DNA of 29,583 nt, taken from positions 1 to 29,583 of the forward strand of contig JBHHYD010000001.1 of NCBI GenBank assembly GCA_046757385.1, read 5' to 3'. Below the pieces are notes generated by a model, which saw only the letters and a program-made list of their open reading frames with translations, searched no databases and was not told where the DNA came from. A program made the translations under genes and the position numbers. The stretch comes from Minisyncoccia bacterium (GTDB lineage Bacteria > Patescibacteriota > Minisyncoccia > Phycocordibacterales > UBA2163). Positions 322 through 22,463 of the stretch are shown here, piece after piece. Numbering within the stretch: the first letter of the stretch is position 1; every line of letters begins with the position of its first letter.

Positions 322-921
322 ATGAAGACTATACTTTTCATCATTGTCGTTATAATAATAGCCGGCAGTTTTGTTATTGCTTTAAATAATTCTGGTGAAG
401 TGGCAGATGTTGCCAGCCCGAGGCTGGTCGGCCTTGGGCCGAAAGAAATTATAAATAATGAAGAACAACTTATGGACACACTTAAACTCACAAGCAAATC
501 TTTTGAAAACAATGGAAACATTCCCTCAAGACACACTTGCGACGGCGAGGGGATTAGTCCGGAGCTGTCTATTGAAGGGATTGATGAAAATGCAAAGTCA
601 CTTGTACTTATTATGGACGATCCGGACGCGCCGTCTGGTACGTGGGATCATTGGGTGAAGTTCAATATTTCAACCTCAACGACGCAAATAAAAGAAGGAG
701 GGGAGCCGGACGGCGCGTCAGGTGTTGGCACGTCAGGCAACAGAGAGTACTTTGGTCCATGTCCGCCAGACAGAGAGCATAGATATTTCTTTAAACTTTT
801 CTCCCTTGATACAGAGCTTGAGTTGGAAGAAGGTGCGACTAAAAGGGAAGTCGAGAAGACAATGGAAGGGCATATACTACAGCAGACGGAATTGGTCGGA
901 CTATACGAGAGAAATCAATAA
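322..921 (+). CDS. ybhB: YbhB/YbcL family (PEBP/Raf kinase inhibitor-like) protein with N-terminal membrane anchor
   Basis: Motifs LIMDDPDAP, WDHW and YFGPCPP..EHRYFFKLFSLD; hydrophobic N-terminus; TGG-TATCAT (306-314) 7 nt before ATG. Confidence 0.9.
   Translation: MKTILFIIVVIIIAGSFVIALNNSGEVADVASPRLVGLGPKEIINNEEQLMDTLKLTSKSFENNGNIPSRHTCDGEGISPELSIEGIDENAKSLVLIMDDPDAPSGTWDHWVKFNISTSTTQIKEGGEPDGASGVGTSGNREYFGPCPPDREHRYFFKLFSLDTELELEEGATKREVEKTMEGHILQQTELVGLYERNQ
413..442 (+). repeat. 30-bp twin-hairpin element, copy 1 (in frame in ybhB)
   Basis: CCAGCC-CGA-GGCTGG TCGGCC-TTG-GGCCGA; near-identical copies at 2677 and 21604; encodes SPRLVGLGP. Confidence 0.9.
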
Positions 922-922
922 T

Positions 923-1144
923 ATGTACATAAAAGTTAAAGTTACTCCTGACGCTAAAAAAGAAAAATTGGAGCAAAAGCAGGAAGATTTATTTGAATTA
1001 AGTGTTAGAGAAAAAGCAAAGCAAAATATGGCAAATGAGCGTGTTAGGGAGCTTATAGCGCGGCATTTTGGTATAATAAAGACAGATGTGAGGATTATAA
1101 GCGGGCACAGAAGTCCGAGCAAAATTATAAGTATTGATAAGTAA
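923..1144 (+). CDS. DUF167/YggU family protein (73 aa)
   Basis: MYIKVKVTPDAKKE...SVREKAKQNMAN..V..LIA.HF...VRIISGHRSPSKII. True start ATG923, 1 nt after the ybhB stop; the track start at 722 overlaps ybhB. Confidence 0.85.
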   Translation: MYIKVKVTPDAKKEKLEQKQEDLFELSVREKAKQNMANERVRELIARHFGIIKTDVRIISGHRSPSKIISIDK

Positions 1145-1162
1145 TTAATATATTGAATAAAT

Positions 1163-1549
1163 ATGGCTATAAGAAAAAATATAAAGACAACAAACATAGA
1201 ACTTACACCAGAGATCTCTGATTATTTAGACAAAAGACTGCAAGCAGTAGAAAAACTAATTGACCCTGAAGACACAAGCGCAATACTTGATGTTGAAGTG
1301 GGCAAGACCACGGAGCATCACCAAAGCGGAAACATCTTTAGAGCGGAGATCAATCTTCATATAGCAGGCAAGCAGATGCGGGCATCAGCAGAAGAATCTA
1401 CAATTTTAAATGCAATAGACAAAGCCGAAAAGGAGGTGGCGCGCGAGCTTCGCAGGCTCAAAGGCAAGCGCATGCGTTTTATGAGAAAAGGCGGAGCAAA
1501 ATTAAAAAACTTGATGCGTTCAATCTATCCCCGCAGGAAATCCTCATAG
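1163..1549 (+). CDS. raiA: Ribosome hibernation factor HPF/RaiA (short form)
   Basis: NIELTPEISDYLDKRL...VEVGKTTEHHQSGNIFRAEINLHIAGKQMRASAEESTILNAID pattern. Confidence 0.88.
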   Translation: MAIRKNIKTTNIELTPEISDYLDKRLQAVEKLIDPEDTSAILDVEVGKTTEHHQSGNIFRAEINLHIAGKQMRASAEESTILNAIDKAEKEVARELRRLKGKRMRFMRKGGAKLKNLMRSIYPRRKSS

Positions 1550-2400
1550 TCCATCTCTTTTTTCCCTTCGGGGATTACTTTTTTTATTTTTAACTTATCG
1601 TCTTCTAATTCAGCGTCGGTTATTTTGATACGCATAAGGTCCGACCTTTTACCATCAAGGTCGGACCTTGATGCAAGAAAGTAGGCAACAGGCCACTGGT
1701 CGTAGGCCCTGATTTTTAGCAAGTTTTGATATGCATCTCCATCAAGCTCTATAAGAGCATCTTCTTTTTTAATTTTTGTCGTAAATGTAGCTTCACTTTC
1801 ATCCTGCGCTTCCGGCTTTATCTTGCCGGCGGTCCAATCGGGGATTACTTCTGCAAGAAGCTTTGCACCCTCTGTAAATAGAAGCTCTTCAAGTTCACCC
1901 GCTCTTGGAGGCCATGGCTCCGGTTCAATACTTGCTTGTGCTACGATAGGTCCGCTATCTATACTTTCATTCAAGAGCATTATAGTTACACCAGTTCTAC
2001 TCTCATCTTGAAGTATTGCAGAGATAATGGGGGACGGTCCACGAAGTTTTGGCAAAAGAGATGGATGAATATTAAGTGTGCCATGTTTTGGAATATCAAG
2101 AAGTTCTTTTGGAAGAATCTTTCCAAATGATGCAACTACAAACAGATCAAAATCGCCTTCTTTCAAAAGTTCAATGAAAGCTTCATCAAGCTCTTCAGGC
2201 TGGACAAAGTTTACCTTGTTTTTTTCTGCCCACACTTTTACAGGCGGGGCAGTCAAGACAAGACTTCTACCTTTGGGTTTGTCGGGAGATGTGACAACCA
2301 AGCTTGCAGTCAAGTCTGCTTTTTTTAATTCTTCAAGAGCTATCACTGCACTTTCTGGAGTTCCAAAGAATGCGATTTTGATTTTATTTGACTTCGTCAT
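1525..2400 (-). CDS. fmt: Methionyl-tRNA formyltransferase
   Basis: IAFFGTP, LNIHPSLLPKLRGPSPI, TGVTIMLL..SIDSGPI; directly downstream of def. Confidence 0.95.
   Translation of the reverse strand: MTKSNKIKIAFFGTPESAVIALEELKKADLTASLVVTSPDKPKGRSLVLTAPPVKVWAEKNKVNFVQPEELDEAFIELLKEGDFDLFVVASFGKILPKELLDIPKHGTLNIHPSLLPKLRGPSPIISAILQDESRTGVTIMLLNESIDSGPIVAQASIEPEPWPPRAGELEELLFTEGAKLLAEVIPDWTAGKIKPEAQDESEATFTTKIKKEDALIELDGDAYQNLLKIRAYDQWPVAYFLASRSDLDGKRSDLMRIKITDAELEDDKLKIKKVIPEGKKEMDYEDFLRG
1636..1673. repeat. Pair of AAGGT-N3-ACCTT palindromes inside fmt
   Basis: AAGGTCCGACCTT (1636-1648) and CATCAAGGT-CGG-ACCTTGATG (1653-1673); the two cores are reverse complements; encode RSDL twice. Confidence 0.8.
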
Positions 2401-2917
2401 GGATATTTTCTGCTTTGTCTATAAAAAGGGTTCCGTCCAAATGATCCATCTCATGCTGGAAGATCTGCGCTAAAAGCCCGCTTCCACCGCGCTCAAAAAC
2501 TTTTCCATTCTCATCAAACGCACGCACTGTTGTTTTTTGGGCCCGCTTAGTAGTTCCGTATTTGCCACGCACAGAAAGACATCCTTCTTCATGGGCTTCA
2601 GTATTCTTTGAAATTTTTGTGATTTCTGGATTTATGAAGACAAAATCAGGGAGTGATGAGGAAGCTTGTTCGTCTTCCAGCCCGAGGCTGGCCGGCCTTG
2701 GGCCGGCAACATCAAACAGTTTTCCAGACACGATGAAAATGCGAAGCGGTACTCCGATCTGCGGGGCAGCGAGAGCGACCCCGTCTTTCTGCGCCTCAAG
2801 AGCTTCAGACATATCTGCTAAAATTTTCTTGATCTTAGGCGATGTAATCTCACTTACAGGCACTTCTTCAGCTTTTCCTCTTAAAGTAGGGTCTCCTTCT
2901 TGTATTATTTTTACCAT
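2384..2917 (-). CDS. def: Peptide deformylase
   Basis: GVALAAPQIG, EGCLS and QHEMDHLDG motifs. Confidence 0.97.
   Translation of the reverse strand: MVKIIQEGDPTLRGKAEEVPVSEITSPKIKKILADMSEALEAQKDGVALAAPQIGVPLRIFIVSGKLFDVAGPRPASLGLEDEQASSSLPDFVFINPEITKISKNTEAHEEGCLSVRGKYGTTKRAQKTTVRAFDENGKVFERGGSGLLAQIFQHEMDHLDGTLFIDKAENIHDEVK
2677..2706 (+). repeat. 30-bp twin-hairpin element, copy 2 (in frame in def, read on the opposite strand)
   Basis: CCAGCC-CGA-GGCTGG CCGGCC-TTG-GGCCGG; compensatory T-A to C-G change versus copy 1; encodes GPRPASLGL. Confidence 0.9.
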
Positions 2918-2945
2918 TTTTCAATGATATCCTAAAAATAAGTAT

Positions 2946-2985
2946 AAAAAAACCCCCGCTATACGAAGGGTGAATAAGCGGGGGT
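2946..2985 (-). terminator. Intrinsic terminator between priA and def
   Basis: 9-bp stem ACCCCCGCT/AGCGGGGGT (2952-2960, 2977-2985) followed by a T run on the minus strand. Confidence 0.8.
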
Positions 2986-3033
2986 CTTGCCGACGGTAGA
3001 AAGAAGAGGGACAAAATCTCCGCCAGCAATACT
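2946..3033 (-). ncRNA. Candidate ~88-nt small RNA
   Basis: Extended -10 at 3040-3048, then a 10-bp stem with two G.U pairs (TTGCTGGCGG/CCGTCGGCAA), then the terminator; no ORF. TSS inferred. Confidence 0.45.
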
Positions 3034-3039
3034 ATATTA

Positions 3040-3048
3040 ATTATAGCA
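3040..3048 (-). promoter_or_regulatory. Extended -10 promoter (TG-C-TATAAT) overlapping the priA stop
   Basis: Minus strand reads TGCTATAAT; TTGATG lies 18 nt upstream of the -10. Confidence 0.6.
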
Positions 3049-4927
3049 AACTTTCAGGGTCAACATCAACAGCAAAATACGCCGGCAGTGAGCGCAGGAT
3101 TTCAACCATTTCTCTGTCTGGCCATTTATCTTTAGGAACCCTTAAAAGGGCGTGCATAGCGTACCTTCCTCCGCTAACTTTTATAGAAGATGGATAGATC
3201 TGGACATCATATTTTTTCAAAAGTTTTTCTATATATTTCATTTCTTTTGCTATTCTTTCGTTTCCTCCAACTACTGTTATTTTGATAAAGATACTGTAAG
3301 GCGGATATTCAAATCGTTTTCTTTTTTTCATCTCCTCTTTATAGAAATCAACAAGACTGCCTCCCTCCACATAGTCAAAGATTCTTTGGTCGGGTTTTCT
3401 TGTCTGTATAAGAATTTCCTTTTCCGTGATTTCTTTTATTTTTAAAAGAAGCGACAGCACTTTTTCTGACATTCTCCATTCAGGGAGTGAGAACAGCGAG
3501 TCCATTGTAGCGATTGCGCTGTATCTAACTGGCTTGTCCAAGTAAGAGAGTGCCATCTCTGTTCCCAGCAAAATCCCTCCTTTTGTAGAATAAAATTTCT
3601 CTATTATCTCTTTTGCTTTTCTGTGCGTGCTTGCAGTGTTTTTATCTATTACAAAAATCTTTGCTTCGGGAAAACTTTGCTTAAGCGTTTTTTCTACGAG
3701 CTGAATTCCTATCCCTAGGGTTTCAAGTTTCCAGCTTGCGCATGTTTTGCATCTTTCGTTGGCGCTTCGTGCCGCGCCGCAGGCGCGGCAGATAAATCGA
3801 TTGCCCTTTGAGGTTGAATAAAGCACAACGGGCGCTTTGCATTCATAGCAAAGCACAGAATTACCGCAGTCACGGCATACCGTAGAAGGAGAAAGCCCGC
3901 GCCTCACAGTAAAGACAAATATATTTTTCTTTTCGTCTATTGTGTTTTCAACTAACTTTTTCAACTCATCGCTTATTATCTCAAAACGGCCGGCTTTTTG
4001 ATGCTTAATATCTTTCATGTCTACAAGTGTCTGCCGGGCTTTCCTTACTGTCCGTAGTTTTGGTGGCGAGAATTCATCAAGTTCTCCTTCTTTATATTTC
4101 CACATTGTCTCAACTTTAAGCGGGAGATCGCCAAATATAATCTGCGCTTTCATCTTTTCCGCATAAACTTCAGCAAATACTCTTTGGTCGATGAACGGAC
4201 GCGTGAACTGCTTATAGCTTCTAGAATTTTCTCTCTCTACAATAATAGTCCTGATGTCACTCCTTGGAATAGAAAGGAACATCCCCGTCGCTATTATAAG
4301 GACAGGATGCTTGCTCTTTAGGGCGTTTTTCCATCGTGTTAGCATTTCCTTCTTTGTTAAACTTCCGTGTAGGACAAATGTGTATGGGTCTATTCCTTTT
4401 TTCAGGAGTTCTTGCGCCTTTTCAGCTTCCTGCATTGTAGGTACTAAAAGAAATACGGATGAATTACGGGCAAACTCTTCGCGAACAAGAGATTTATAAC
4501 TTGCAAAGCGGTCTGCTATTTCAGATTGAAGTACAAGTTTCTGACATAAAGGATTGTCTTTTTTTGTTACAGAGGATTGTCCTTTGGGATTTTTTTCATC
4601 GAAGATTACGTTTGGCACTAACGCTTTAAGTATCACACCTGTCGATGTGGCAAAATACTCCGCTGCGCTCTGCGCGGCGGAGATAAACTCAGGCAGAAAA
4701 AGCATTTTTGCTTTTTTCCCATCAATCTTTTTAAGTGCAAAGCTTGCGCTTCTTATTTTAGCTTTCTCTTCGCCGATATCTTTTGAAGAGAGTACGATTC
4801 CAGGAACCTGTTTCTTCCGGAGCGGTATGGAGACGACAGACCCTTCTTTAATGGGTTCAGCGCTGTAGTAGGTAAGGGATTCTCTGCTCAAGCCCTTTGA
4901 TATTGGAATGACATTAATAAGCTGCAT
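3041..4927 (-). CDS. priA: Primosomal protein N'
   Basis: LLVPT, LHGSL, RRGLS..VCRDCG...CYECK...CRACG......CKTC Zn-finger series, GTEMAL, QTRKPD; priA-def-fmt synteny. Confidence 0.92.
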   Translation of the reverse strand: MQLINVIPISKGLSRESLTYYSAEPIKEGSVVSIPLRKKQVPGIVLSSKDIGEEKAKIRSASFALKKIDGKKAKMLFLPEFISAAQSAAEYFATSTGVILKALVPNVIFDEKNPKGQSSVTKKDNPLCQKLVLQSEIADRFASYKSLVREEFARNSSVFLLVPTMQEAEKAQELLKKGIDPYTFVLHGSLTKKEMLTRWKNALKSKHPVLIIATGMFLSIPRSDIRTIIVERENSRSYKQFTRPFIDQRVFAEVYAEKMKAQIIFGDLPLKVETMWKYKEGELDEFSPPKLRTVRKARQTLVDMKDIKHQKAGRFEIISDELKKLVENTIDEKKNIFVFTVRRGLSPSTVCRDCGNSVLCYECKAPVVLYSTSKGNRFICRACGAARSANERCKTCASWKLETLGIGIQLVEKTLKQSFPEAKIFVIDKNTASTHRKAKEIIEKFYSTKGGILLGTEMALSYLDKPVRYSAIATMDSLFSLPEWRMSEKVLSLLLKIKEITEKEILIQTRKPDQRIFDYVEGGSLVDFYKEEMKKRKRFEYPPYSIFIKITVVGGNERIAKEMKYIEKLLKKYDVQIYPSSIKVSGGRYAMHALLRVPKDKWPDREMVEILRSLPAYFAVDVDPESLL

Positions 4928-4983
4928 AGCTTAAGCATACCAAAATCCACAAAAACTCTCGTCCTTGACTTTTTAATGATTAT

Positions 4984-5250
4984 ATGGCAGTCTATATATG
5001 GAAAACAAATTCTTTAACTTTGGAAAATGGCAAGACTTATGCATCACAGAGAAATTATGGAGTTTCTTTTTCGGGACTCAAGAATATTAGTCTTAGTAAG
5101 AACAGAAATCAGGTAATCTCACAATTTGGAAAGAGTGAGAAGAATGCCCCAGGTATAATCCTGATAGTTATGTTTTTTGGAATTGGCATTTTTATTATAG
5201 TAAAACCGACAGAAGTAATGGCGCAGTTAGAAACGATGTTTAATGGATGA
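4984..5250 (+). CDS. Possible small membrane protein (hypothetical, start uncertain)
   Basis: 88-aa ORF with one hydrophobic stretch (GIILIVMFFGIGIFIIV), followed by a strong hairpin; no recognisable family. Confidence 0.3.
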   Translation: MAVYIWKTNSLTLENGKTYASQRNYGVSFSGLKNISLSKNRNQVISQFGKSEKNAPGIILIVMFFGIGIFIIVKPTEVMAQLETMFNG

Positions 5251-5269
5251 TATTAGAACAGTGTTTACG

Positions 5270-5318
5270 ACCACATTTTTCGCTTGAAGTTTGAGCGAAA
5301 AATGTGGTTATTTTTTAT
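5270..5318 (+). terminator. Intrinsic terminator
   Basis: 15-bp perfect stem ACCACATTTTTCGCT/AGCGAAAAATGTGGT (5270-5284, 5294-5308) followed by TATTTTTTATT. Confidence 0.8.
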
Positions 5319-5363
5319 TCAACTATACACAATGTAATACACAACAATACATATAATTACTTC

Positions 5364-5396
5364 ATGAACCTATACTTACGATCGGATTTATATGTT
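5364..5396. repeat. Left palindromic site flanking the PaaX/Cas2-like gene
   Basis: ATGAACCTATACTTA-CGATCG-GATTTATATGTT; 27/33 identical to the reverse complement of 5984-6016. Confidence 0.8.
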
Positions 5397-5407
5397 ACGA
5401 TTGAAAT

Positions 5408-5962
5408 ATGCCCAGAGGTCATGGAGAAATACAAAAGAAAATACTAGTAGTTTTACTTGGAGGACTTGCCTTAGGATTATCCAGATCACCAAAGATGTCT
5501 TTCCAAATCATTGGTGCGATGGCAAAGGAATGGAAAGATATAGATGAACGCAAATTAAGGCGCTCAATAAGAGCACTCTATAAAGAAAAACTTCTTGATG
5601 AAATACATAACAGAGATGGTACAACAACACTTGTCTTAAACAAAGAAGGGAAAAAGTTCGCGCTTACCTATAATCTTGAAAATATGAAAATCAAGAAGCA
5701 GTCCAAATGGGACAAGAAATATAGAATTGTAATTTTTGATATCCCTGAACGTTTAAGAAAAGTGCGTGATTCATTGCGTATGCATTTACAGGACTTAGAT
5801 TTTTCTGAGCTTCAGAAATCAGTATTCGTGCATCCATATGAATGCTCAAAAGAAATAGAATACATTGTTGAATTTTATAGAATAAAAAAGCACGTTCGTT
5901 TTATTGTTGCTGATTCAATAGACAATGAGTTGCACATAAAACGAATATTTAAATTAAACTAA
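5408..5962 (+). CDS. Stand-alone winged-helix + Cas2-like (PaaX-type) protein
   Basis: wHTH-like LRRSIRALYKEKLL..HNRDGTTTLVLNKEGKK, then WDKKYRIVIFDIPE..RKVRDSLR..L..LDF..LQKSVFVHPYEC; no cas1 or array in the window. Confidence 0.8.
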   Translation: MPRGHGEIQKKILVVLLGGLALGLSRSPKMSFQIIGAMAKEWKDIDERKLRRSIRALYKEKLLDEIHNRDGTTTLVLNKEGKKFALTYNLENMKIKKQSKWDKKYRIVIFDIPERLRKVRDSLRMHLQDLDFSELQKSVFVHPYECSKEIEYIVEFYRIKKHVRFIVADSIDNELHIKRIFKLN

Positions 5963-5983
5963 ATTAATCTGATTTTAAAATTG

Positions 5984-6016
5984 TACCTATAACTACGATC
6001 GTATTTATAGGTTCAT
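5984..6016. repeat. Right palindromic site flanking the PaaX/Cas2-like gene
   Basis: ACCTATAACTA-CGATCG-TATTTATAGGT (5985-6012) is an 11-6-11 imperfect palindrome, inverted relative to the left site. Confidence 0.8.
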
Positions 6017-6092: not shown

Positions 6093-7394
6093 ATGTTGAA
6101 GGATAAATTTCTAATTAAGGGGCTTGCTGGCAAGAAGACACTTAAGGGTAAAATCGCCGTTGCAGGGGCGAAAAATGCAGTGCTTCCGGCGCTTGCGGCA
6201 TCCCTTTTATTTAAAGACAAGTTCTGTATCTCAAATGTACCAGAGATAAGCGATGCAAGGCACATGGCAACACTCCTTCAAAATCTCGATGCGAAGATTA
6301 CAAAAAAAACAAAAAAAACATTTTGCATAGAAACAAAAAATATCAAAAAGAAAGAAATTGATACAGAGATCTCAAACGAACTTCGCGCATCAATAATACT
6401 CACAGGCCCTCTTCTCGCGCGATTTGGAGAAGTTTCGTTTAGTCACCCTGGTGGATGCATAATAGGTAAGAGGCCAGTTGATATTTTTATTGATGGCTAT
6501 AAGAAAATGGGTGCTAAAGTGACGCAAAAAAACGGAAAATACAATATAAAAACTAAAGATAAAAAGTTAAAGGGAGCAAAAATATTCTTCGACAAAATAA
6601 GTGTTACCGGGACAGAAACACTAATGCTTGCAGGAGTTTTAGCAAAAGGTAAAACTGTACTTGAAAATGCCGCAATGGAGCCGGAGATAAAGCATTTAGC
6701 GGAGTTTTTAAACTCTTGTGGTGCGAAAATAAAAGGCGCAGGCACTTCAACAATTGAAATAACAGGAGGAATATTATTACAAGCGAAAGGAAAAATGTAT
6801 AAGACACTTCCAGACAGAATAGAAGCTGGAAGCTTTCTCATTCTCGGTGCATTATCAGCTGATAATTTAGAGATTACAAATTGCATTCCAGAGCATATAA
6901 ATTCTCTGATTGAATTATTAAGGCAATCTGGATTATCTATCAAGACAGAAAAAAATAAAATCCTTATAAAAAATAATTCCAAAACAAAAAATAACGTTTT
7001 CAAAAATGTAGATGTACAAACACATGAGTATCCAGGATTTGCTACAGATCTTCAGGCGCCGATGTGTGTATTTTTAACCCAAACCAAAGGTGAGAGCAAA
7101 ATACACGAGACGATTTTTGAAGGCAGGCTTAATCATACAGGTGACCTTGTAAGGATGGGGGCGAACATAACCATGTGGAATCCTCATCAAGCTACGATAA
7201 AAGGCCCCACAACGCTTCGTGGGAAAGAGCTTGAAGGGCCTGACCTGCGAGCCGGGCTTGCATACGTCATTGCGGCAGTCATTGCAAAAGGGGACTCAGT
7301 AGTGAATAATGTACACTACATTGATCGTGGGTATGAAAAGATTGAAGAGAGGTTGAGAGACATTGGGGTCAATATAAAAAGAATAAAAAGCTAA
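6093..7394 (+). CDS. murA: UDP-N-acetylglucosamine 1-carboxyvinyltransferase
   Basis: GAKNAVLP, LRASI, PGGCIIGKRPVD (catalytic Cys present), PDRIEAGS, YPGFATDLQAP, DLRAG, IDRGYE. Confidence 0.97.
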   Translation: MLKDKFLIKGLAGKKTLKGKIAVAGAKNAVLPALAASLLFKDKFCISNVPEISDARHMATLLQNLDAKITKKTKKTFCIETKNIKKKEIDTEISNELRASIILTGPLLARFGEVSFSHPGGCIIGKRPVDIFIDGYKKMGAKVTQKNGKYNIKTKDKKLKGAKIFFDKISVTGTETLMLAGVLAKGKTVLENAAMEPEIKHLAEFLNSCGAKIKGAGTSTIEITGGILLQAKGKMYKTLPDRIEAGSFLILGALSADNLEITNCIPEHINSLIELLRQSGLSIKTEKNKILIKNNSKTKNNVFKNVDVQTHEYPGFATDLQAPMCVFLTQTKGESKIHETIFEGRLNHTGDLVRMGANITMWNPHQATIKGPTTLRGKELEGPDLRAGLAYVIAAVIAKGDSVVNNVHYIDRGYEKIEERLRDIGVNIKRIKS

Positions 7395-16606: not shown

Positions 16607-17321
16607 AATGTATCATTCAACTGCAAAAGAAATGGAAAAACTTGATATTCTAGCCGTGAAAAACGGTTTGGAGATAAAGCAAATGATGGAGCTTGCAGGT
16701 TTCCATATGGTAGAAGTTTTTCGGAAGCTCAAGATAAGTAGAAACAAAAAAATCACAATAATATGCGGCACTGGAAACAAAGGTGGAGACGGTCTGTCTG
16801 CAGCTCGACACTTATATAACTATGGATACAAAAAGATCTTTATTATTCTGGTGTCTTCAAAAATAAAAGATGACCCAAAGCATCATCTAAATCTTTTAAA
16901 AAAGATGAAAATTCCAATTTATATTTACACAAAAAAAGCTGATGTGCTTATAAAAAAGTCCGATATTTTAATAGATTCTTTGATCGGATATCATTTAGAT
17001 GGAAATGTAAGAGGGAAATTTGCAGAATTAATTGAAATAATGAATAGATCAAAGAAAAAAATTATTTCATATGATCTGCCGAGTGGGATTGATGCTACAA
17101 CAGGTAAATGCCTTGGTATTTGTATCAAAGCTTACGCGACACTTACACTCGCGCTTCCAAAAAAGATTTTTAAAACAAAAGAAGGCAGGAAAATGTCAGG
17201 TAAAGTATTTCTTGCTGATATTGGTATTCCGACATTTTTATATGATAAAATTAAGCCATGCCTGCCGGCAGGCAGGAAAAACAGCCGTCCTGAATTTGGG
17301 GCTGGTGTAACAAAAATATGA
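16599..17321 (+). CDS. nnrE: NAD(P)H-hydrate epimerase (stand-alone YjeF N-domain)
   Basis: MMELAG, CGTGNKGGDGLSAARHL, IDSLIGY, SYDLPSGIDATTG, TLTLALPK, LADIGIP. Confidence 0.9.
   Translation: MNKMYHSTAKEMEKLDILAVKNGLEIKQMMELAGFHMVEVFRKLKISRNKKITIICGTGNKGGDGLSAARHLYNYGYKKIFIILVSSKIKDDPKHHLNLLKKMKIPIYIYTKKADVLIKKSDILIDSLIGYHLDGNVRGKFAELIEIMNRSKKKIISYDLPSGIDATTGKCLGICIKAYATLTLALPKKIFKTKEGRKMSGKVFLADIGIPTFLYDKIKPCLPAGRKNSRPEFGAGVTKI
17259..17274. repeat. GC-rich 16-bp perfect palindrome in the nnrE tail
   Basis: TGCCTGCCGGCAGGCA, encoding CLPAG(R). Confidence 0.7.
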
Positions 17322-17953
17322 AAGAAGATTTTAAAATTATAGACATATCACTTCCGCTTAATTCTTCCACGGTTATTTATCCAAATAATCCTAAAGTTGA
17401 GATTGAAGAAAATATTGATAAAAGAAAAGGATTAACCGTAACAGATTCAAAAATTACTCTTGGCTCGCATACCGGAACTCACATAGATGCGCCAAGGCAC
17501 GTTTTTGAAGACGGTGCAACGCTTGATCAAATCCCGCTTGAGCAGATAGTAGGCAAATGCAGAGTTTTGGATTTTACAGACGCTGAAGAATCTATAAAAA
17601 CTTCTGATCTAGAGAAGCACGATATTAAAGAAGGGGAAAGGATACTTGCAAAAACAAAGAATTCAGAGATTGGTTTTGATGAATTTAGAAACGACTATAT
17701 TTATTTAGACGGCAATGCAGCAGAGTATTTAGCAAAGAAAAGGGTAGCCCTTTTCGGTATTGACTATTTGTCTGTAAAACAAAGGGGAAGCGAGGATATA
17801 AGACCTCATACAGAGCTTTTGAAAAACAACATAGTAATATTTGAAGGACTTGATTTGTCTCAAGTAGAGGAAGGAGAGTATATGTTTGTAGGACTTCCTA
17901 TTAGATTTACAGGAATAGACGGCTCACCAGCAAGAGCGATTTTACTTAAATAA
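17318..17953 (+). CDS. Cyclase family metal-dependent hydrolase (KynB-like)
   Basis: GSHTGTHIDAPRH, GIDYLSV, H..LL...IVIFEGL, GSPARAIL. Confidence 0.9.
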   Translation: MKEDFKIIDISLPLNSSTVIYPNNPKVEIEENIDKRKGLTVTDSKITLGSHTGTHIDAPRHVFEDGATLDQIPLEQIVGKCRVLDFTDAEESIKTSDLEKHDIKEGERILAKTKNSEIGFDEFRNDYIYLDGNAAEYLAKKRVALFGIDYLSVKQRGSEDIRPHTELLKNNIVIFEGLDLSQVEEGEYMFVGLPIRFTGIDGSPARAILLK

Positions 17954-17955
17954 AA

Positions 17956-17991
17956 ATCCCTAGGGATATCCCTAGGATTAATCCTAGGGAT
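17956..17991. repeat. Three abutting CCTAGG-centred palindromes between convergent stops
   Basis: ATCCCTAGGGAT ATCCCTAGGATT AATCCTAGGGAT. Confidence 0.8.
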
Positions 17992-18756
17992 TTATAGAAA
18001 CTCCAGAAGTCCCTCGTAGTTTATGAAGTCGAAGAATTCGTAGCCGTACTGGATAGTTAAGCCGAAGTTGTCTGTTACAAGGAGAAGTCCTAACAGAATA
18101 AGAAATACTCCACCTACATACGAAACTATTTTTAAGTATTTAGAGAGTTTTGTTATGTATTTCGTGGCATGAGAGAAGCCGAGTGCAATTGCGATAAATG
18201 GTATAGCAAGCCCGAGCGAGAATACGGTAAGCATCAGCGCACCCTGCAAGGCCGTTGTCGTAGTTGCTGTGAGCAAAAGTATTGAACCAAGTATAGGCCC
18301 TACACACGGTGTCCAGCCGAATGCAAACGCTCCGCCTATTGCAAAAGAGCTTGACGGGCGTCCTATAGTGAGCCATTTTGGCGTTCTGAATCGGCGTTCT
18401 TTTTGCAGGAAGTTGAGATTAAATACTCCGAGCATAAAGAGACCGAAGATTATAACAAGCCCACCTCCTATGCGCCCGAACCAGAGCCGAAATGGAGTGA
18501 GAGCTTGACCCACAACTCCAGCTAATGTTCCAAATATTATAAATACTAGGGTAAATCCTAGGATAAAAAATATGCCGTTTAGGAATATCTTTCTTCTTGC
18601 TTCTCTCCCTTTCTCTGGATCTTGTGCATCAGCCTCTGACACACCACTTATAAATCCAAGGTATGCCGGCACTAAGGGGAGCGTGCAGGGGGCAAGGAAT
18701 GTCAAAAGTCCTGCGAAAAAAGCTGATAATAAAAATCCTATACTTATTGCTTCCAT
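17992..18756 (-). CDS. ccdA: CcdA / DsbD-beta disulfide transport membrane protein
   Basis: FLAPCTLPLVPAYL and FGWTPCVGPILGSIL cysteine motifs; about 6 TM segments. Confidence 0.92.
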   Translation of the reverse strand: MEAISIGFLLSAFFAGLLTFLAPCTLPLVPAYLGFISGVSEADAQDPEKGREARRKIFLNGIFFILGFTLVFIIFGTLAGVVGQALTPFRLWFGRIGGGLVIIFGLFMLGVFNLNFLQKERRFRTPKWLTIGRPSSSFAIGGAFAFGWTPCVGPILGSILLLTATTTTALQGALMLTVFSLGLAIPFIAIALGFSHATKYITKLSKYLKIVSYVGGVFLILLGLLLVTDNFGLTIQYGYEFFDFINYEGLLEFL

Positions 18757-18765
18757 AATGTTTTT

Positions 18766-19320
18766 TTAATTATTAATAACAGAATTTACTTTTTGCCGCA
18801 TTTCATCCAAATCCATAGGACCTCTTTTATGGATAATAATATTGCCCTCAGCATCTGCAAAAATTGTCTCCGGCATAGAGAACCCGCCTATGCCTTTGTA
18901 AAATGCATCTTTAGGGTCAAGCAGGAATGTCATTCTCTCTGTCACACCTATCTCATCTGTAAATCCTTTTGCTTTCTCAAGTGACTCCTGCCTGTCTATA
19001 GCAACGACTGTTATTTCATTACCAAACTCCTCCTGGAGCTGCGCGAAATCCTCAAGCTCTGCTCTGCAGAACGGACACCATACAGCCCATGAATTAAGAA
19101 CGTGTGGCTTACCTTGAAATTGGCTCAAAGTAAATGTGTTTCCTTCGTAATCTTCAAATGAAAGGTCAGGAATTTTGTCATAATCATTTTCTTCTTTTTG
19201 TCCATCCTCTGATGCAGTTACTTCAGACTCATTTGTCATATCACTAGTATCTCCATTGCGAAGTATCAGGAAGCCCCCTCCTATAATAAATATAATGATA
19301 ATTGTTATAATTGCTTTCAT
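18766..19320 (-). CDS. TlpA/ResA-like membrane-anchored thiol-disulfide oxidoreductase
   Basis: N-terminal TM; LNSWAVWCPFCRAEL; MPETIF. Confidence 0.88.
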   Translation of the reverse strand: MKAIITIIIIFIIGGGFLILRNGDTSDMTNESEVTASEDGQKEENDYDKIPDLSFEDYEGNTFTLSQFQGKPHVLNSWAVWCPFCRAELEDFAQLQEEFGNEITVVAIDRQESLEKAKGFTDEIGVTERMTFLLDPKDAFYKGIGGFSMPETIFADAEGNIIIHKRGPMDLDEMRQKVNSVINN

Positions 19321-19324
19321 AATA

Positions 19325-20308
19325 TTATTTTAATAGTTCTGTCTCCGGATGTACAGCGAGCCATGAGAACCAGAAGCCGTCTACGTGAGGTACTGGACCG
19401 CCATTTGCTGTTATCTTTACCACATCAGTCTCATCTTTTGTTATTTCTATGTTTTTGCCGGCAAATGTATCTTTAGTTGTTCCAACTTTAAGGGAATCTC
19501 TCTCGTATGCCTTAAACTTTCCGTCAATCTCAATTCCAAGAACAAATGTTTTTGGATGTAGTCTGTTGTCACTGAAAGTTGCTCCGAAACTTACTGATTC
19601 GTCTGTATAATAATCTCCATACGGATCAAGGCCATAACTTCTTATAGCTCCTGTCTCGCGGGAGAGCACCTCTGTATTTGGATGCGCTTTTTTCCAAGCG
19701 CCGTACTTTACTGTGTCGGCTGGCAGTATTTTTAACTTTTCTCCAGTTGATACACCAAGCACTGCCTCTCCTAAGACTTGCGACCAGAGAGACTCATCAT
19801 CAGGATTTTGCGTGCGGTTATACATAAGCAGATTTGACTGCCAAAGCTTTCCTGATACTCCGAACTCTTGGGCTATTCCATTTACTTTCGGATCAAAAAC
19901 GATACCTGTTGCGCAAAGCGGGCAGTAAGTAACAAGCACGCGATCGTTCTTGATAGTATCGTTTACGATCTCATGCCATACAAGCACTTGATATGGATAG
20001 AAACGCTCGACCCCGTTAAATACAAGTCCAAGACCTACATCAGTATTGGTCAAGTATTCATCGGCTTCTTTTGTAGAGATAAACTTAGGGTTATCAATGG
20101 ATGGTATACCGTCTTTTCCTGGACCTCCTGAAAGGATTTCATTAAGGGGGATTGAGTGTTTTACACCATCTGTAATAAGTATTTTATTATTTAATGATGA
20201 TATTTTTTCACTTTTTTCGTTCATTGGGATAGGGAATTGATTAGCATTTCTATAAAATATAAAGCCAATGCCTGCGATGACGACTAAAATAATTATAAGA
20301 AATCTCAT
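19325..20308 (-). CDS. DUF3179 domain protein
   Basis: GGPGKDGIPSIDNPKF, WHEIVND, TYCPLCATG, FGVSGKLWQSNLLMY, FWFSWLAVHPET. Confidence 0.88.
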   Translation of the reverse strand: MRFLIIILVVIAGIGFIFYRNANQFPIPMNEKSEKISSLNNKILITDGVKHSIPLNEILSGGPGKDGIPSIDNPKFISTKEADEYLTNTDVGLGLVFNGVERFYPYQVLVWHEIVNDTIKNDRVLVTYCPLCATGIVFDPKVNGIAQEFGVSGKLWQSNLLMYNRTQNPDDESLWSQVLGEAVLGVSTGEKLKILPADTVKYGAWKKAHPNTEVLSRETGAIRSYGLDPYGDYYTDESVSFGATFSDNRLHPKTFVLGIEIDGKFKAYERDSLKVGTTKDTFAGKNIEITKDETDVVKITANGGPVPHVDGFWFSWLAVHPETELLK

Positions 20309-20343
20309 AAGCTTATTTTTTTATTATATCACACATGTCAAGG

Positions 20344-20410
20344 GTGCGCGGAAAAGGTCGTTCCTCGAGGAGCCTGAAAGGCGGAAGAGGTGCGACCTTG
20401 AGGAGCGCAC
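20344..20410. repeat. GC-rich cruciform element between divergent DUF3179 and rnhB promoters
   Basis: Outer GTGCGC/GCGCAC; inner AAGGTCGTTCCTC/GAGGTGCGACCTT; inverted copy at 20520-20608. Confidence 0.8.
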
Positions 20411-20427
20411 GATGGTATACTTATCAA

Positions 20428-21072
20428 ATGAAATACAAATATATCATCGGCATAGACGAAGCAGGCAGAGGCCCTCTTGCAGGGCCTGTTGCTGTGGGAG
20501 CTGTGCTTGTGCCAGCAGACGCTCCTCAAGGTCTCACTGTTCCAAGGTCGCACCTCTCCCGTCGCTATCGCTCCTCCTCGAGGAACGACCTTATGACCTT
20601 TTCCCGCGTCAAGGATTCAAAGAAACTTACTGAGATTCAGAGAGAAAAAATATTTGAAAAAATAAAAGAAAACAAAAACATACGATATATCGTATGTTTT
20701 GCGAGTGCTAGGCAGATTGATAAGTTGGGGATAGTAAAAGCGATTGGTAATGCACTAAAGAAAGCACTTGCGAAGCTTGATGCAAACCCTAACAAATGCA
20801 AAATACTTCTTGACGGCACACTCAAAGCGCCAGTTAAATATAAAAATAAAAAGACAATAATAAAAGGAGACGAAAAAGAGTTTGTAATCTCTCTTGCTTC
20901 AATTGCTGCAAAAGTTGAGAGGGACAAAAAGATGCAAAATTTTTCTAAAAAATATCCTAAATATAATTTTGAAAAGCATAAAGGATACGGCACAAAAGAG
21001 CATTACAGAAAAATCAAAAAACATGGGATTTGTGATATTCATCGCAAAACCTTTGTCAAGGTTCGACCTTGA
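20428..21072 (+). CDS. rnhB: Ribonuclease HII with an Arg/Ser-rich internal insertion
   Basis: IGIDEAGRGPLAGPV, KDSKKL, LLDG, IIKGD, SLASIAAKVERD, HKGYGT, IHRKTF. Start ATG20428 is 6 nt after TGG-TATACT; the track start at 20335 translates the repeat. Confidence 0.95.
   Translation: MKYKYIIGIDEAGRGPLAGPVAVGAVLVPADAPQGLTVPRSHLSRRYRSSSRNDLMTFSRVKDSKKLTEIQREKIFEKIKENKNIRYIVCFASARQIDKLGIVKAIGNALKKALAKLDANPNKCKILLDGTLKAPVKYKNKKTIIKGDEKEFVISLASIAAKVERDKKMQNFSKKYPKYNFEKHKGYGTKEHYRKIKKHGICDIHRKTFVKVRP
20520..20608. repeat. Inverted copy of the upstream cruciform, in frame inside rnhB
   Basis: Exact reverse-complement blocks: 20574-20592 vs 20354-20372 (19 bp), 20543-20557 vs 20386-20400 (15 bp), 20520-20532 vs 20395-20407 (13 bp). 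Confidence 0.85.
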
Positions 21073-21075
21073 CAA
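21053..21075. repeat. Perfect 10-3-10 palindrome over the rnhB stop
   Basis: TTGTCAAGGT-TCG-ACCTTGACAA; same AGGT-N3-ACCT core. Confidence 0.8.
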
Positions 21076-21078
21076 TAG

Positions 21079-21107
21079 TTGCCAAAGAAGCCAAGTTTTG
21101 GTACAGT
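21079..21107 (+). promoter_or_regulatory. Promoter of rpmF (leaderless geometry)
   Basis: TTGCCA-17 nt-TACAGT, 7 nt before ATG21115. Confidence 0.6.
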
Positions 21108-21114
21108 ATTCTTT

Positions 21115-21414
21115 ATGTCAGTACGAATGAGACATACACGAGGACATACGCAAAATAGACGCTCACACCACGCGCTTGAAGAGAAGCGGCTTTCTCTGTG
21201 TCCAGATTGTAAGGCACCCACAGAAAGGCATACGGTATGCAGCGCATGCGGAAGATACAGAGGCAGAGTGGTGATTGATATGGCGGCAAAACTTGAGAAA
21301 AAGCAGGCCAAAGAAAAGGCAAAGAAACAAGATAGAACTGAAGAGGCTACTAACGAGCCGGAAGAAGTGGTAGAAGATAAACCACTTGATGCAGCAGAGC
21401 TGTCAAAAAAGTAA
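21115..21414 (+). CDS. rpmF: 50S ribosomal protein bL32 (Zn-binding form) with C-terminal extension
   Basis: MSVRMRHTRGHTQNRRSHHAL...CPDC.....HTVCSACGRYRGRVV; 99 aa from ATG21115. Confidence 0.92.
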   Translation: MSVRMRHTRGHTQNRRSHHALEEKRLSLCPDCKAPTERHTVCSACGRYRGRVVIDMAAKLEKKQAKEKAKKQDRTEEATNEPEEVVEDKPLDAAELSKK

Positions 21415-21418
21415 AGTG

Positions 21419-21508
21419 CGATACCAATATACGAATGGCATGCTAATTATACAAATTCACACTTGTATAATATTAGTATCATTAGTATAAATTAGTATAT
21501 TAGCATCG
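21419..21508. repeat. Long AT-rich imperfect inverted repeat built from ATTAGTAT-like units
   Basis: ATTATACAA/TTGTATAAT core; outer arms 21420-21436 and 21491-21507 match at 14/17; ATTAG(T/C)AT at 21472, 21481, 21491, 21499. Confidence 0.65.
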
Positions 21509-21515
21509 ATTCATA

Positions 21516-22463
21516 ATGAATAGGCACCTTTCAAGATCAATAGTATTACAGACTTTGTTTGAACTTGATTTCAACGGTCTTATTGGTGGAAATAAAAAGA
21601 CTACCAGCCCGAGGCTGGTCGGTCTTGGGCCGAAAGATATTGAGGCGACTCTCACTAGAGTCGCCGAAGAATTCGCTCCCGGTATGGGAGATTTTTCATT
21701 TGTAAAAGAGCTCTTAAACAGTCTTATTAAAAAGCAAAAAGATATTGATAAAATCATAGAAAAAGCTGCTCCAGAGTGGTCGATTGATAAAATCTCTGTC
21801 GTAGATAGAAATATTTTAAGGATAGGATTGTTTGAACTTTTGTTTGCAGATAGAAAAGAAGTTCCTGCAAAAGTTGCTATAAATGAAGCAATTGAACTTG
21901 CAAAGACATTCGGCGGAGAAAGTAGCGGCAGGTTTGTGAACGGTGTTCTGGGTGCAGTGTATAAAGAAATAGGGGAGCCGGGCAAAGACGAGGTTTCCAA
22001 AAAGAAGCCGAAGAAAAAAATTGAGGATGTTCCGTATGAGAAAATGCCTATCAAACGACTCGGCGGGTGTGTGGTATATGCAAAGGATGGAAAAGATATA
22101 TATCTTGCACTTGTTCACGATGTGTTCGGGCACTGGACTCTCTCAAAGGGGGGAATAAAAGAAAAAGAGGATAAAGAGAAAGGCACAGTGCGCAAAATAA
22201 AAGAAGAGCTTGGGATTACTGTAAAAATAAAAGAAAAACTTGGAGAAAATGAGTACGTGGCTTCTGACCCGGAAGAAGGAAAGATAAGAAAGCAGGTTAC
22301 TTATTATCTCGCAGAATCAAAGTTTGAAGATTTGAAGCTTGAGAACAAAGGCGGACTTGACGATGCAAAATGGTTCAAACTCGGAGACATTGTGGACCTA
22401 AATTTTTATGATGATATACTTCCTATCGTGACAAAAGCGATTAATATATTACTTAAGAAATAA
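21516..22463 (+). CDS. nusB: Transcription antitermination factor NusB fused to a C-terminal Nudix-like domain
   Basis: RHLSRSIVLQTLF, APEWSIDKISVVDRNILR, VAINEAIELAKTFG..SGRFVNGVLG; C-terminal WTLSKG-G5-E...RKIKEELGI Nudix box. Confidence 0.92.
   Translation: MNRHLSRSIVLQTLFELDFNGLIGGNKKTTSPRLVGLGPKDIEATLTRVAEEFAPGMGDFSFVKELLNSLIKKQKDIDKIIEKAAPEWSIDKISVVDRNILRIGLFELLFADRKEVPAKVAINEAIELAKTFGGESSGRFVNGVLGAVYKEIGEPGKDEVSKKKPKKKIEDVPYEKMPIKRLGGCVVYAKDGKDIYLALVHDVFGHWTLSKGGIKEKEDKEKGTVRKIKEELGITVKIKEKLGENEYVASDPEEGKIRKQVTYYLAESKFEDLKLENKGGLDDAKWFKLGDIVDLNFYDDILPIVTKAINILLKK
21604..21633 (+). repeat. 30-bp twin-hairpin element, copy 3 (in frame in nusB)
   Basis: CCAGCC-CGA-GGCTGG TCGGTC-TTG-GGCCGA (one G.T wobble change); encodes SPRLVGLGP. 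Confidence 0.9.

Follow-up and report, generated by a model that had tools for sequence, protein, structure and literature searches.

A twin-hairpin 30-mer lies in frame in three unrelated genes

The stretch of DNA analyzed here (the window) covers 29,583 nucleotides of a 0.5-Mb hydrothermal-vent Patescibacteria (CPR) genome, the assembly of which is 91% complete. Three genes in the window, identified by Pfam, encode a PEBP (PF01161)/YbhB-family protein (322..921, + strand), peptide deformylase (PF01327; def, 2384..2917, − strand), and a NusB-NUDIX fusion (PF01029 and PF00293; 21516..22463, + strand). Each of them contains one copy of a 30-bp element: copy 1 (413..442, + strand) lies within the PEBP/YbhB gene and encodes (A)SPRLVGLGP(K); copy 2 (2677..2706, + strand, antisense to def) encodes GPRPASLGL(E); and copy 3 (21604..21633, + strand) lies in NusB and encodes (T)SPRLVGLGP(K). 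The copies were exactly as the initial annotation had described them, and the flanks that it reported, GATGTTG ahead of two copies and AAGA behind all three in the coding direction, were present as well. A search of the window with a degenerate pattern, allowing at most 3 mismatches, returned exactly these three copies, all on the + strand, and 100 dinucleotide shuffles of the window gave no match.

Each copy consists of two back-to-back 15-nt hairpins with 6-bp stems and 3-nt loops; the consensus in the genome is CCAGCC-CRA-GGCTGG-TCGGCC-TYG-GGCCGA, which is GC-rich compared to the genome (39% GC) and, as read from the sequence, free of stop codons in all six frames. The differences among the copies preserve pairing, as had been claimed: in hairpin 2, the def copy has CCGGCC/GGCCGG in place of TCGGCC/GGCCGA, i.e., a T-A pair changed to C-G, and in the NusB copy one pair is a G.T wobble. 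When folded as ssDNA, the copies had their energy minimum at the twin hairpin (−9.2 to −12.5 kcal/mol, z −3.3 to −4.3). A twin-hairpin model was 99% paired, with at least two Watson-Crick types at 7 of the 12 pairs, whereas a single long hairpin model was only 77% paired; the single hairpin is thus disfavored by covariation, though RNA energy parameters favor that fold. The hits were pre-filtered for structure (at least 11 of 12 pairs), which inflates the overall paired fraction; however, pair 18-28 was unconstrained in the search pattern and provides a fair test, and it was CG in 30, GC in 16, and AT in 6 cases. Compensatory changes of this kind speak for a pair of hairpins, not a single long one, and for a structure under selection. 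An Rfam search around two copies returned no match (E up to 1), and a hammerhead-like reading of CTGG-TCGGCC-loop-GGCCGA-AA was rejected upon inspection because its core positions fail.

The element adds ten codons to its host genes

Alignment with orthologues from eight congeners revealed that the 10 codons are absent from their PEBP, Def, and NusB genes; in an alignment with 11 orthologues, the NusB insert stands out as 10 cleanly added codons. In the PEBP/YbhB protein, copy 1 falls within the linker that follows the hydrophobic N-terminal segment. On predicted structures, the Def insert (residues 72-81) is a coil with pLDDT <50 between strands 60-63 and 92-102, and the NusB insert is likewise a coil with pLDDT <50, between helices 3-19 and 39-53. 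The two models are of moderate quality (mean pLDDT 64 and 73.5), and the loop placement is therefore indicative only.

A genome scan for hairpin pairs detected 22 copies in 499 kb (approximately 1 per 23 kb), 20 of which lie within ORFs of at least 100 aa; the remaining two are in rpmC and a 29-codon ORF. Such ORFs cover 88% of the genome, and the element does not avoid coding DNA: its coding copies are proportional to the coding share of the genome. Further hosts, again identified by Pfam, are rpoD, secA, infB, argS, glyA, rplC, rpsI, rpmC, and trmD. The copies span three phases and two orientations, yielding unrelated peptides, and at all 22 the frames of full-length Pfam-supported host genes remain intact. 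With a length of 10 codons and no stop in any frame, the element can be read through as a short peptide. From the reading frames and structure models, the insert is predicted to be read through as a 10-residue Gly/Pro/Ser/Ala/Arg-rich segment in surface loops, linkers, and termini; the available runs are of DNA, and there are no RNA data. The use of orientation and phase in this genome matches the expectation from the target motif; one orientation and phase (SAQGGPASGW) accounts for 62 of the 119 coding copies from other genomes, as opposed to 24 expected from that motif.

The family has expanded recently at sites without target duplication

Within the order, 3 of 40 genomes have copies, as do 13 of 400 drawn evenly across the phylum, mostly 1-3 each; the family is also present in more than 100 other CPR assemblies. 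In the closest congener (G003), all 20 alignable orthologous sites were empty. This shows that the expansion to 22 copies postdates the split from the closest sampled congener. The initial annotation had inferred a structure-selected mini-element spreading through coding DNA, even in core genes, and the stem covariation, the 22-copy family, and the empty congener orthologues bear this out. The window is present in two separate vent samples. On a contig of the second sample, position 21588 of the window is joined to position 21641 via 19 different letters, making it 33 nt shorter, which we interpret as a related allele of NusB that lacks the element. One genome (G179) contains 12 copies embedded in a longer repeat, mostly outside long ORFs; no nuclease gene adjoins them, and G179 thus revealed no master copy. 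A phage vector was also set aside, since IMG/VR viral contigs had no exact match to the element. We found no published account of such elements in CPR bacteria.

Six clean empty/filled pairs (C6:3233, C54:2054, C42:4202, C5:3515, C3:6955, and C6:1956) revealed that insertion adds exactly 30 nt with zero target duplication. The target sites read T-S|R-A-A; of 162 copies, 108 have T at −2 and 142 have A at +2, and the element ends are CCAG... and ...CCGA or GGA. An adjacent 6-8 nt direct repeat accompanies only about 13% of the copies, and regular target duplication is contradicted by the clean pairs. Landing in the loops of pre-existing hairpins was rejected as a general rule, as inverted repeats in the flanks were no commoner than in permuted controls. 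Such landing holds only for tRNA-like targets, where copies sit in loops, after GTTC or CTTG.

Related elements adjoin a tiny GIY-YIG nuclease gene

At 7 of 114 loci selected by the element, a tiny GIY-YIG ORF begins 12-27 nt past it, and one relative (G026) has a further locus of this kind. We also retrieved 80 metagenome loci via the UPF0213-type GIY-YIG nuclease subfamily, blind to the element. The twin hairpin was found 7-38 nt upstream of the gene in 35 of 78 nuclease-selected loci; it was present in 32 of the 37 loci (86%) at ≥58% identity versus 3 of the 43 below 58%, and 8 loci had a second hairpin copy after the stop codon. In most hairpin-bearing cassettes (26/35), a tRNA gene comes next, usually tRNA-Ser, and the 5′ part of the tRNA is duplicated around the element. 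The divergence of the nuclease correlates with that of the hairpin (Mantel r 0.22-0.24, p about 0.001). The cassette nuclease, approximately 85 aa, is a bare UPF0213-type catalytic domain (relatives: PDB 1ZG2 and 1YWL); to our knowledge, no function has been assigned to UPF0213 (YhbQ-like) proteins.

No member of the hairpin-linked subfamily was found in the 91%-complete assembly of the window genome, and a role of the nuclease in this genome is therefore only inferred. Its two tiny GIY-YIG genes (C10 and C19) are 38-45% identical to that subfamily and are adjoined by other palindromes. None of the 22 copies adjoins a GIY-YIG gene; they would be solo derivatives of the nuclease cassette. The mere presence or absence of tiny GIY-YIG genes proved uninformative across 41 relatives, 32 of which have such genes while only 4 have the element.

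On balance, and without firm confidence, we favor the reading that the three 30-mers are a self-propagating mini-element, the non-autonomous partner of a cassette with an ~85-aa UPF0213-type GIY-YIG gene; the partnership, as well as binding and cutting by the nuclease, is inferred. The cassette gene, with its twin hairpin upstream of the start, would lodge beside tRNA-Ser genes. Its product may recognize the hairpin or a cruciform and nick or cut T-S|R-A-A targets, and the 30-mer would be copied in at repair, possibly via 2-3 nt of flanking microhomology. Young insertions would reflect target preference, and older survivors would have been filtered towards the least harmful reading frame. Against this reading, GIY-YIG enzymes are known to us as nucleases, not transposases, and there is no established biochemical route to a duplication-free 30-nt insertion; moreover, adjacency and co-divergence could mean simple linkage or a role of the hairpin in nuclease gene expression. 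A broader proposal is possible but tentative: the twin hairpin and the UPF0213-type nuclease may constitute an unrecognized class of bacterial mobile element, in which a bare domain recognizes a 30-nt structure, the gene lodges in duplicated tRNA-Ser, and 10-codon copies enter essential genes across Patescibacteria. It would be the smallest known transposable unit and a steady source of new loops.

Alternative explanations

The element might spread independently of GIY-YIG genes, whereby cassettes only create dispensable pseudo-tRNA halves with loops in which landing is preferred and harmless, or else hairpin copies already in place are the homing target of the nuclease; the mover would then be unknown, or copies would arise by template switching at hairpins in replication or repair. 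Solo copies greatly outnumber cassette-linked ones (about 8/166), they are also seen in duplicated 3′ tRNA fragments that lack a neighboring nuclease gene, and the 22-copy burst described here has no assembled cognate nuclease. The solo flanks (TTG|AAA) are also the tRNA-Ser anticodon-loop context of some cassettes, which fits microhomology-guided copying. However, an element that is rare (3% of genomes, 1-3 copies) occurs in 86% of the closest nuclease relatives, always upstream of the start codon by 7-38 nt, with the tRNA homology ending 5-12 nt after it; given this fixed position and occupancy despite its rarity, chance landing is inadequate. The co-divergence of hairpin and protein sequences is a further difficulty, and we regard independence as unlikely.

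The initial annotation saw no mobilizing enzyme and raised the question of a co-occurring HUH/Y1 transposase. The former holds for the window but not for the genome, which contains two RAYT-like Y1-HUH genes (G000:C15 and C20) with HUH and Tyr motifs. The element could accordingly be REP/REPIN-like and moved as ssDNA by a Y1-HUH (RAYT/IS200-type) or Y2 (IS91-type) enzyme, with the hairpins as minimal ends and insertion 3′ of a TTC/TTG-like target without duplication. In line with this, clean pairs lack target duplication, the 5′ target ends in T-C or T-G, hairpins are favored as ssDNA, and the GTTC or CTTG preceding copies in tRNA-like loops resembles IS91 targets. In 19 of 21 copies (hand-corrected), the A-first strand coincides with the strand that is rich in genes and in G, as replication-strand-biased insertion predicts, but this bias is inseparable from host-gene orientation (18/22). 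The twin hairpin is not at the flanks of the RAYT-like genes: each is bracketed by its own different hairpins and ATATCCAC repeats, and the one element about 150 bp upstream of the C20 gene lies within secA. RAYT was rejected as the mover on the grounds of these private hairpins, of the lack of adjacency in other loci (a RAYT-like ORF occurs in only 2 of 114 element loci, adjacent in neither), and of its presence in most element-free relatives (29 of 41 relatives have the genes, only 4 the element). In addition, IS608-type enzymes use guide sequences, for which the element has no space. No cognate HUH enzyme linked to the twin hairpin was found in the RAYT-like flanks, the 114 element loci, or the 41 relatives examined, and we consider movement by a Y1 or Y2 enzyme improbable.

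Selection for a host-beneficial signal or peptide module, e.g., a regulatory hairpin, an uptake or segregation signal, or a 10-residue motif, instead of selfish DNA, could account for the near-identical sequence across deep CPR lineages, the strong polarity relative to the gene-rich strand, and the one dominant reading frame in other genomes. It is very hard to reconcile with an element missing from 37 of 40 same-order genomes and from all tested sister-species orthologous sites, inserted in three phases and two orientations that give unrelated peptides in unrelated host genes, at a density of only 1 per 23 kb and without an Rfam match. Finally, short-read assemblies can be broken or mis-joined at short GC-rich repeats, and a contig end (C71) is 11 nt away from one copy, but an assembly artefact or chance resemblance is practically ruled out by the zero matches in shuffles, the intact frames at 22 of 22 copies, the recovery of the element from metagenome contigs and from over 100 assemblies of different groups, and the two separate vent samples that contain the window.

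Significance and comparison with known systems

If the favored reading is true, no self-propagating element seen so far within bacterial genes is smaller, and this one has added ten residues to sigma-70, SecA, IF-2, L3, S9, L29, ArgRS, SHMT, Def, and NusB of one 0.5-Mb genome. The family offers a natural experiment in the tolerance of essential proteins to random loop insertion and in later filtering of reading frames by selection. It also hints at what the widespread UPF0213 (YhbQ-like) GIY-YIG proteins may do and at a testable enzyme-substrate pair, and it affects CPR annotation and phylogenomics through spurious marker-gene indels and contig breaks.

The precedent first invoked, the Rickettsia palindromic elements (RPEs), is apt in behavior but not in membership. 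RPEs are about 100-150 bp, form ten families restricted to Rickettsia, and each encode a conserved peptide (PMC10969869). Like them, the element is a palindromic selfish repeat in frame in unrelated, often essential genes, and adds a peptide in structurally tolerant places; unlike them, it is a twin hairpin of 30 nt without a single peptide, inserted in all phases and both orientations, phylum-wide, and linked to GIY-YIG genes.

The elements called DHE (Paquin et al. 2000, cited in PMC10085805) and GC clusters (references in PMC2800124) of fungal mitochondria are short GC-rich two-stem-loop elements that move between close relatives. The element resembles DHE in having two adjacent GC-rich stem-loops that are variably present between close relatives (in form only; there are no homology data), and both kinds inhabit AT-rich compact genomes and occasionally lie inside coding or rRNA genes. 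DHE and GC clusters are 26-79 bp long. They occur in organelles, mostly between genes or in introns, and vary in length, whereas the element is bacterial and fixed at 30 nt.

MITEs have terminal inverted repeats and target-site duplications, and no duplication was seen at the six clean pairs. IS200/IS605, IS91, and their miniature derivatives (PATEs) share with the element the lack of target duplication and a short T-rich target, and their hairpin ends are recognized as ssDNA; however, their ends are subterminal with guide sequences, and they are far longer. REP, BIME, and REPIN sequences are extragenic hairpin repeats with a GTAG or CGTC tag that flank a RAYT (TnpA-REP, Y1-HUH) gene (PMC3733652, PMC6006769). 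They have in common with the element GC-rich 20-40 nt hairpins, often paired and with compensatory changes, and non-autonomous partners flanking a single-copy enzyme gene. In contrast, the copies here are mostly intragenic (20/22 in ORFs ≥100 aa), GTAG/CGTC tags are absent from their ends, and the flanks are T-S and R-A-A. Unlike in a REPtron, the gene flanked elsewhere is a GIY-YIG nuclease.

The cassette also recalls GIY-YIG homing genes in being a small nuclease gene next to or within a conserved host gene, with horizontal spread and duplicated or co-converted flanks. Examples of free-standing GIY-YIG homing endonuclease genes are the Seg genes of phage T4 and I-TevI. The homing enzymes known to us have a DNA-binding domain, and we know of no dispersed non-autonomous hairpin copies associated with them; the cassette protein, in contrast, is a bare UPF0213-type catalytic domain paired with a twin hairpin. 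What is new here is a twin hairpin tied to a tiny UPF0213-type GIY-YIG gene that may move it, while the RAYT-like genes have different hairpins.

The twin hairpin in the window and across the genome

The initial annotation described three 30-mers at 413-442, 2677-2706 and 21604-21633 of the window, and all three are confirmed at these coordinates on the + strand, in the genes for a PEBP protein, peptide deformylase (def) and a NusB-NUDIX fusion, respectively. Each folds as had been claimed, into two 6-bp stems with 3-nt loops, and the differences among them preserve pairing, with a compensated T-A to C-G change in the def copy and one G.T wobble in the nusB copy. A degenerate pattern allowing up to three mismatches found exactly these three sites in the window and none in 100 shuffles. 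The minimum-energy fold of the copies as single-stranded DNA is the twin hairpin (-9.2 to -12.5 kcal/mol, z -3.3 to -4.3), and the inserts, at 73-83% GC, are conspicuous because the window is only 35-44% GC. The third host gene (window 21516-22463) joins NusB to a C-terminal NUDIX hydrolase domain, a fusion kept in all 12 relatives searched, from five families of the order.

The genome-wide scan that the annotation proposed was carried out on the source assembly (G000; 499 kb, 74 contigs, 38.8% GC, 90.7% complete), in which scanning by sequence and, independently, by structure returned the same 22 copies, with compensated stem variants (TCAGCC/GGCTGA, TCCGCC/GGCGGA, CAAGCC/GGCTTG, and CCAGCT/AGCTGG). 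Twenty copies lie inside open reading frames (ORFs) of at least 100 aa; of the other two, one sits at the C-terminal end of ribosomal protein L29 and one in a basic ORF of 29 codons. Since such ORFs span 88% of the genome, this is the level expected from random placement, and coding DNA is not avoided by the element. According to Pfam assignments, the hosts serve transcription and translation (RpoD, IF-2, ArgRS, ribosomal proteins L3, S9, and L29, and NusB), RNA modification (TrmD, RsmH, and Dus), replication, secretion, and protein maturation (DNA polymerase III delta, SecA, and Def), and metabolism and other functions (SHMT, Fe/Mn superoxide dismutase, class-V aminotransferase, a metallo-beta-lactamase-fold protein, DUF4015, and PEBP). 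The inserts were also mapped on AlphaFold models of Def and NusB (mean pLDDT 64 and 73.5), as had been suggested, where they fall in coils of pLDDT below 50 between secondary-structure elements; many other copies lie within 15 residues of the N-terminus or in C-terminal tails and linkers.

The element was inserted recently and exactly

In protein alignments with eight congeners and with several other members of the order, Def, NusB, and PEBP each show 10 extra residues. Element-free orthologues with the same peptide at the same length would have refuted the idea of insertion; the aligned orthologues lack those 10 residues. The whole genome of the closest congener, G003 (NusB 93% identical), was then aligned to every element site of G000, and the element was absent at all 20 alignable orthologous sites. 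Six empty/filled pairs were clean enough to define the boundaries, namely those at C6:3233 (GATG|AAAA, the bar marking the insertion point), C54:2054 (AATG|AAAG), C42:4202 (CTT|CAT), C5:3515 (TTT|AAG), C3:6955, and C6:1956 of the G000 contigs; in all six the gain is exactly 30 bases and the target is not duplicated. Two twin hairpins are present in G003 itself, one of them at a site empty in G000; no orthologous region of the other was found in the G000 assembly. A contig from a second hydrothermal-vent sample (run X2) joins window position 21588 to 21641 with 19 different bases in place of 52, a span 33 nt shorter than in the window; judged from sequence, this is consistent with a NusB allele of a co-occurring related strain without the element. 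These data show that a 30-nt, structure-constrained unit inserts exactly, has done so recently, and is indifferent to coding DNA.

Over 162 copies, the flanks carry a target that we write T-S|R-A-A: position -2 is T in 108 copies, -1 is C, G, or T (A in only 15), +1 is A or G, +2 is A in 142, and +3 is A in 105. The flanks of these 162 copies show no enrichment of inverted repeats. An abutting direct repeat of at least 6 nt (mostly 6-8 nt) accompanies about 13% of copies vs about 1% in the local control; these repeats are often heptamer arrays or tandem units of the element plus 7-8 nt, for which we offer no explanation. Tandem elements with a 7-8 nt spacer (37-38 nt period), or an element between identical heptamers, occur among the fetched loci at L071:2264-2338, L056:6041-6109, L015:5002, L029:4910, L054:140, and L084:4858; these arrangements remain unexplained and could have been left by repeated rounds of insertion and excision, or by slippage.

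A different palindrome, the 16-nt perfect TCCGCCAGCTGGCGGA, is present in 11 copies in G003 (loci L165, L169, L170, L171, L175, L177, L181, L183, and L195), with an in-frame gain of 12 or 18 nt. All seven alignable sites are unoccupied in G000, which has one copy of its own (C73:1250), and two copies lie within 8 nt of G000 twin-hairpin sites, where the N-terminal tails of RpoD and S9 are encoded. A separate burst, with a different hairpin, seems to have taken place in each lineage.

Distribution and covariation of the stems

Three other genomes among 40 of the same order have two to three copies each, and copies are present in 13 of 400 genomes drawn evenly from the phylum, mostly one to three per genome. 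In species-representative genomes the element matched at least 114 loci. Among the matches listed, most titles are of Patescibacteria (Moranbacteria, Parcubacteria, Saccharibacteria, Berkelbacteria, Magasanikbacteria, Wolfebacteria, Nomurabacteria, and others), and a few are MAG records that, by their labels alone, are proteobacterial or Bdellovibrionales. IMG/VR viral contigs yielded no exact match to the element.

The commonest form of hairpin 2 elsewhere is TCCGCC/GGCGGA, from which the G000 form TCGGCC/GGCCGA differs by a double compensatory change. Across a set of 56 distinct sequences, pairing reaches 99% under the twin-hairpin model, and 7 of the 12 pairs occur in two or more Watson-Crick types. 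A single long hairpin, only 77% paired in the same set, fails exactly at the positions that distinguish the two stems. The sequences were collected through a structural filter, so the fair test of covariation is pair 18-28, on which the search pattern placed no constraint: it is CG in 30, GC in 16, AT in 6, and other in 4. In another patescibacterial genome (G179), all 12 copies form the core of a longer conserved repeat in the order AAGTATCAAGTATC, element, AAAGTGTGGTGTCGC (loci L219-L230), mostly outside long ORFs; the 30-mer can thus nest in, or seed, larger repeat families.

The twin hairpin is tied to a subfamily of tiny GIY-YIG nucleases

Among the matches listed, a tiny GIY-YIG ORF begins 12-27 nt after the element in seven cases at element-selected loci, and the relative G026 provides one further case. 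Five of the element-adjacent nucleases (those of L010, with its gene at 6542-6799, L053, and L050, and the two of L119) make up a subfamily of 58-66% mutual identity, vs 28-47% to non-adjacent nucleases, including the two of G000; those of L103 and L034 are more divergent. The nuclease has more than 530 relatives in metagenomes. In the decisive test, which started from the enzyme side, 80 metagenome loci were fetched by alignment of the subfamily, blind to the element, and a twin hairpin stood 7-38 nt upstream of the nuclease start in 35 of 78. It was present in 32 of 37 loci at 58% identity or more vs only 3 of 43 below, and eight loci had a second copy 40-143 nt past the nuclease stop. The stems vary by locus yet remain paired (TGCGCC/GGCGCA, CCCGCC/GGCGGG, CCCACC/GGTGGG, and CCCTCC/GGGAGG), the CRA and TYG pattern persists in most loops, and distances between the proteins are correlated with those between the hairpins (Mantel r 0.22-0.24, p ~0.001), as either enzyme-substrate co-evolution or mere linkage could produce. 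The nuclease matches the UPF0213 GIY-YIG structures 1ZG2 and 1YWL.

The cassette begins with an upstream flank and the 5' portion of a tRNA (tRNA-Ser in most cases), up to the D-loop or anticodon loop, followed by the twin hairpin, a further 5-12 nt of the tRNA, a short leader, the nuclease gene, and, 0-13 nt from its stop, the same flank with the complete tRNA. A tRNA lies downstream in 26 of 35 hairpin-bearing loci vs 10 of 45 without the hairpin. Taken together, these results show that the twin-hairpin structure is tightly tied, physically and evolutionarily, to one tiny GIY-YIG subfamily.

Candidate movers of the element

We infer that this nuclease moves the element: it would nick or break the target, the 30-mer would then be copied in, and solo copies, those without an adjoining nuclease gene, would be its non-autonomous derivatives. 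The main weakness of this reading is that the G000 assembly (90.7% complete) contains no cognate nuclease and that all 22 copies in it stand apart from any cassette; the gene could be in the 9% left unassembled, could have disappeared once the burst was over, or could be dispensable. The two tiny GIY-YIG genes of G000 itself (C10:2400-2960, locus L157:1250-1810; C19:3850-4250, locus L158:1336-1731) have no twin hairpin beside them, and other palindromes surround both. A 13-bp stem lies upstream of one of them, with a 34-nt GTTACGTAGCATG... palindrome on its downstream side; the second gene is about 70 nt past a tRNA-Ser, behind GCTACGC-TGAA-GCGTAGC.

The first alternative is HUH-type single-strand transposition. 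The annotation had advised a search for an HUH/Y1 transposase, and the genome does encode two RAYT-like Y1-HUH proteins (C15:6101-6837, locus L122:1254-1990; C20:2688-3412, locus L123:1246-1970), but these genes are bracketed by distinct hairpins of their own. Each carries its private hairpin four times: immediately before the gene, immediately after it, and twice in frame within the ORF, where the positions are homologous between the two paralogues (one reads the peptides LGNPATK and LGGGVTK, the other LRGKAS twice). ATATCCAC repeats stand at both ends. Cognate hairpins inside coding sequence are unusual for a transposase-like gene. RAYT-like genes occur in 29 of 41 relatives irrespective of the element, and none adjoins an element in the element-selected loci of other genomes among the matches listed. 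Given the private hairpins, the occurrence irrespective of the element, and this lack of adjacency, we consider these genes unlikely movers.

Alternatively, the element may be independent of the nuclease and merely favour pseudo-tRNA loops. Solo copies are indeed present in duplicated tRNA 3' fragments, within the T-loop, a short way past intact tRNA-Leu or tRNA-Met genes (L086:4496-4690, L095:2656-2845, and L014:1380-1592). At these loci, the last ~30 nt (T-arm to 3' end) are duplicated 40-55 nt past the intact tRNA and interrupted as GGTTC|element|AAATCC, and no nuclease gene is nearby. The tRNA-context junctions CTTG|AAAA, GTTC|AAAT, and GGCC|GAGT are mostly compatible with the general target.

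A third possibility is a host function, and a fourth is an artefact, against which the occurrence of the element in over 100 assemblies speaks.

The G000 copies are read in three phases and two orientations, giving unrelated peptides (SPRLVGLGP, PA[RQ]GWSASGR, QPKAGRPRAE, GPRPASLGL, and SAQGGPASGW), and match the target-motif expectation for orientation and phase (chi-square 4.6), whereas outside G000 a single orientation and phase (peptide SAQGGPASGW) accounts for 62 of 119 coding copies vs 24 expected from the motif (chi-square 75). We read the former as a young, unfiltered burst and the latter as frame-filtered survivors. In 19 of 21 copies (two orientation calls were corrected by hand), the strand that reads CCAGCC first is the gene-rich, G-rich one, a bias inseparable from the orientation of the host genes, with which 18 of 22 agree.

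Comparison with known systems

Literature searches returned no description of such an element in CPR bacteria. The precedent named at the outset, the Rickettsia palindromic elements (PMC10969869), is borne out for behaviour, which is alike, although their size and peptide families are not met here. Mitochondrial double-hairpin elements (PMC10085805) are alike in form but belong to an organelle setting that the present element does not share. REP-RAYT pairs (PMC3733652, PMC6006769) follow a similar logic, but their extragenic location, end tags, and RAYT flanking are not features of the twin hairpin.
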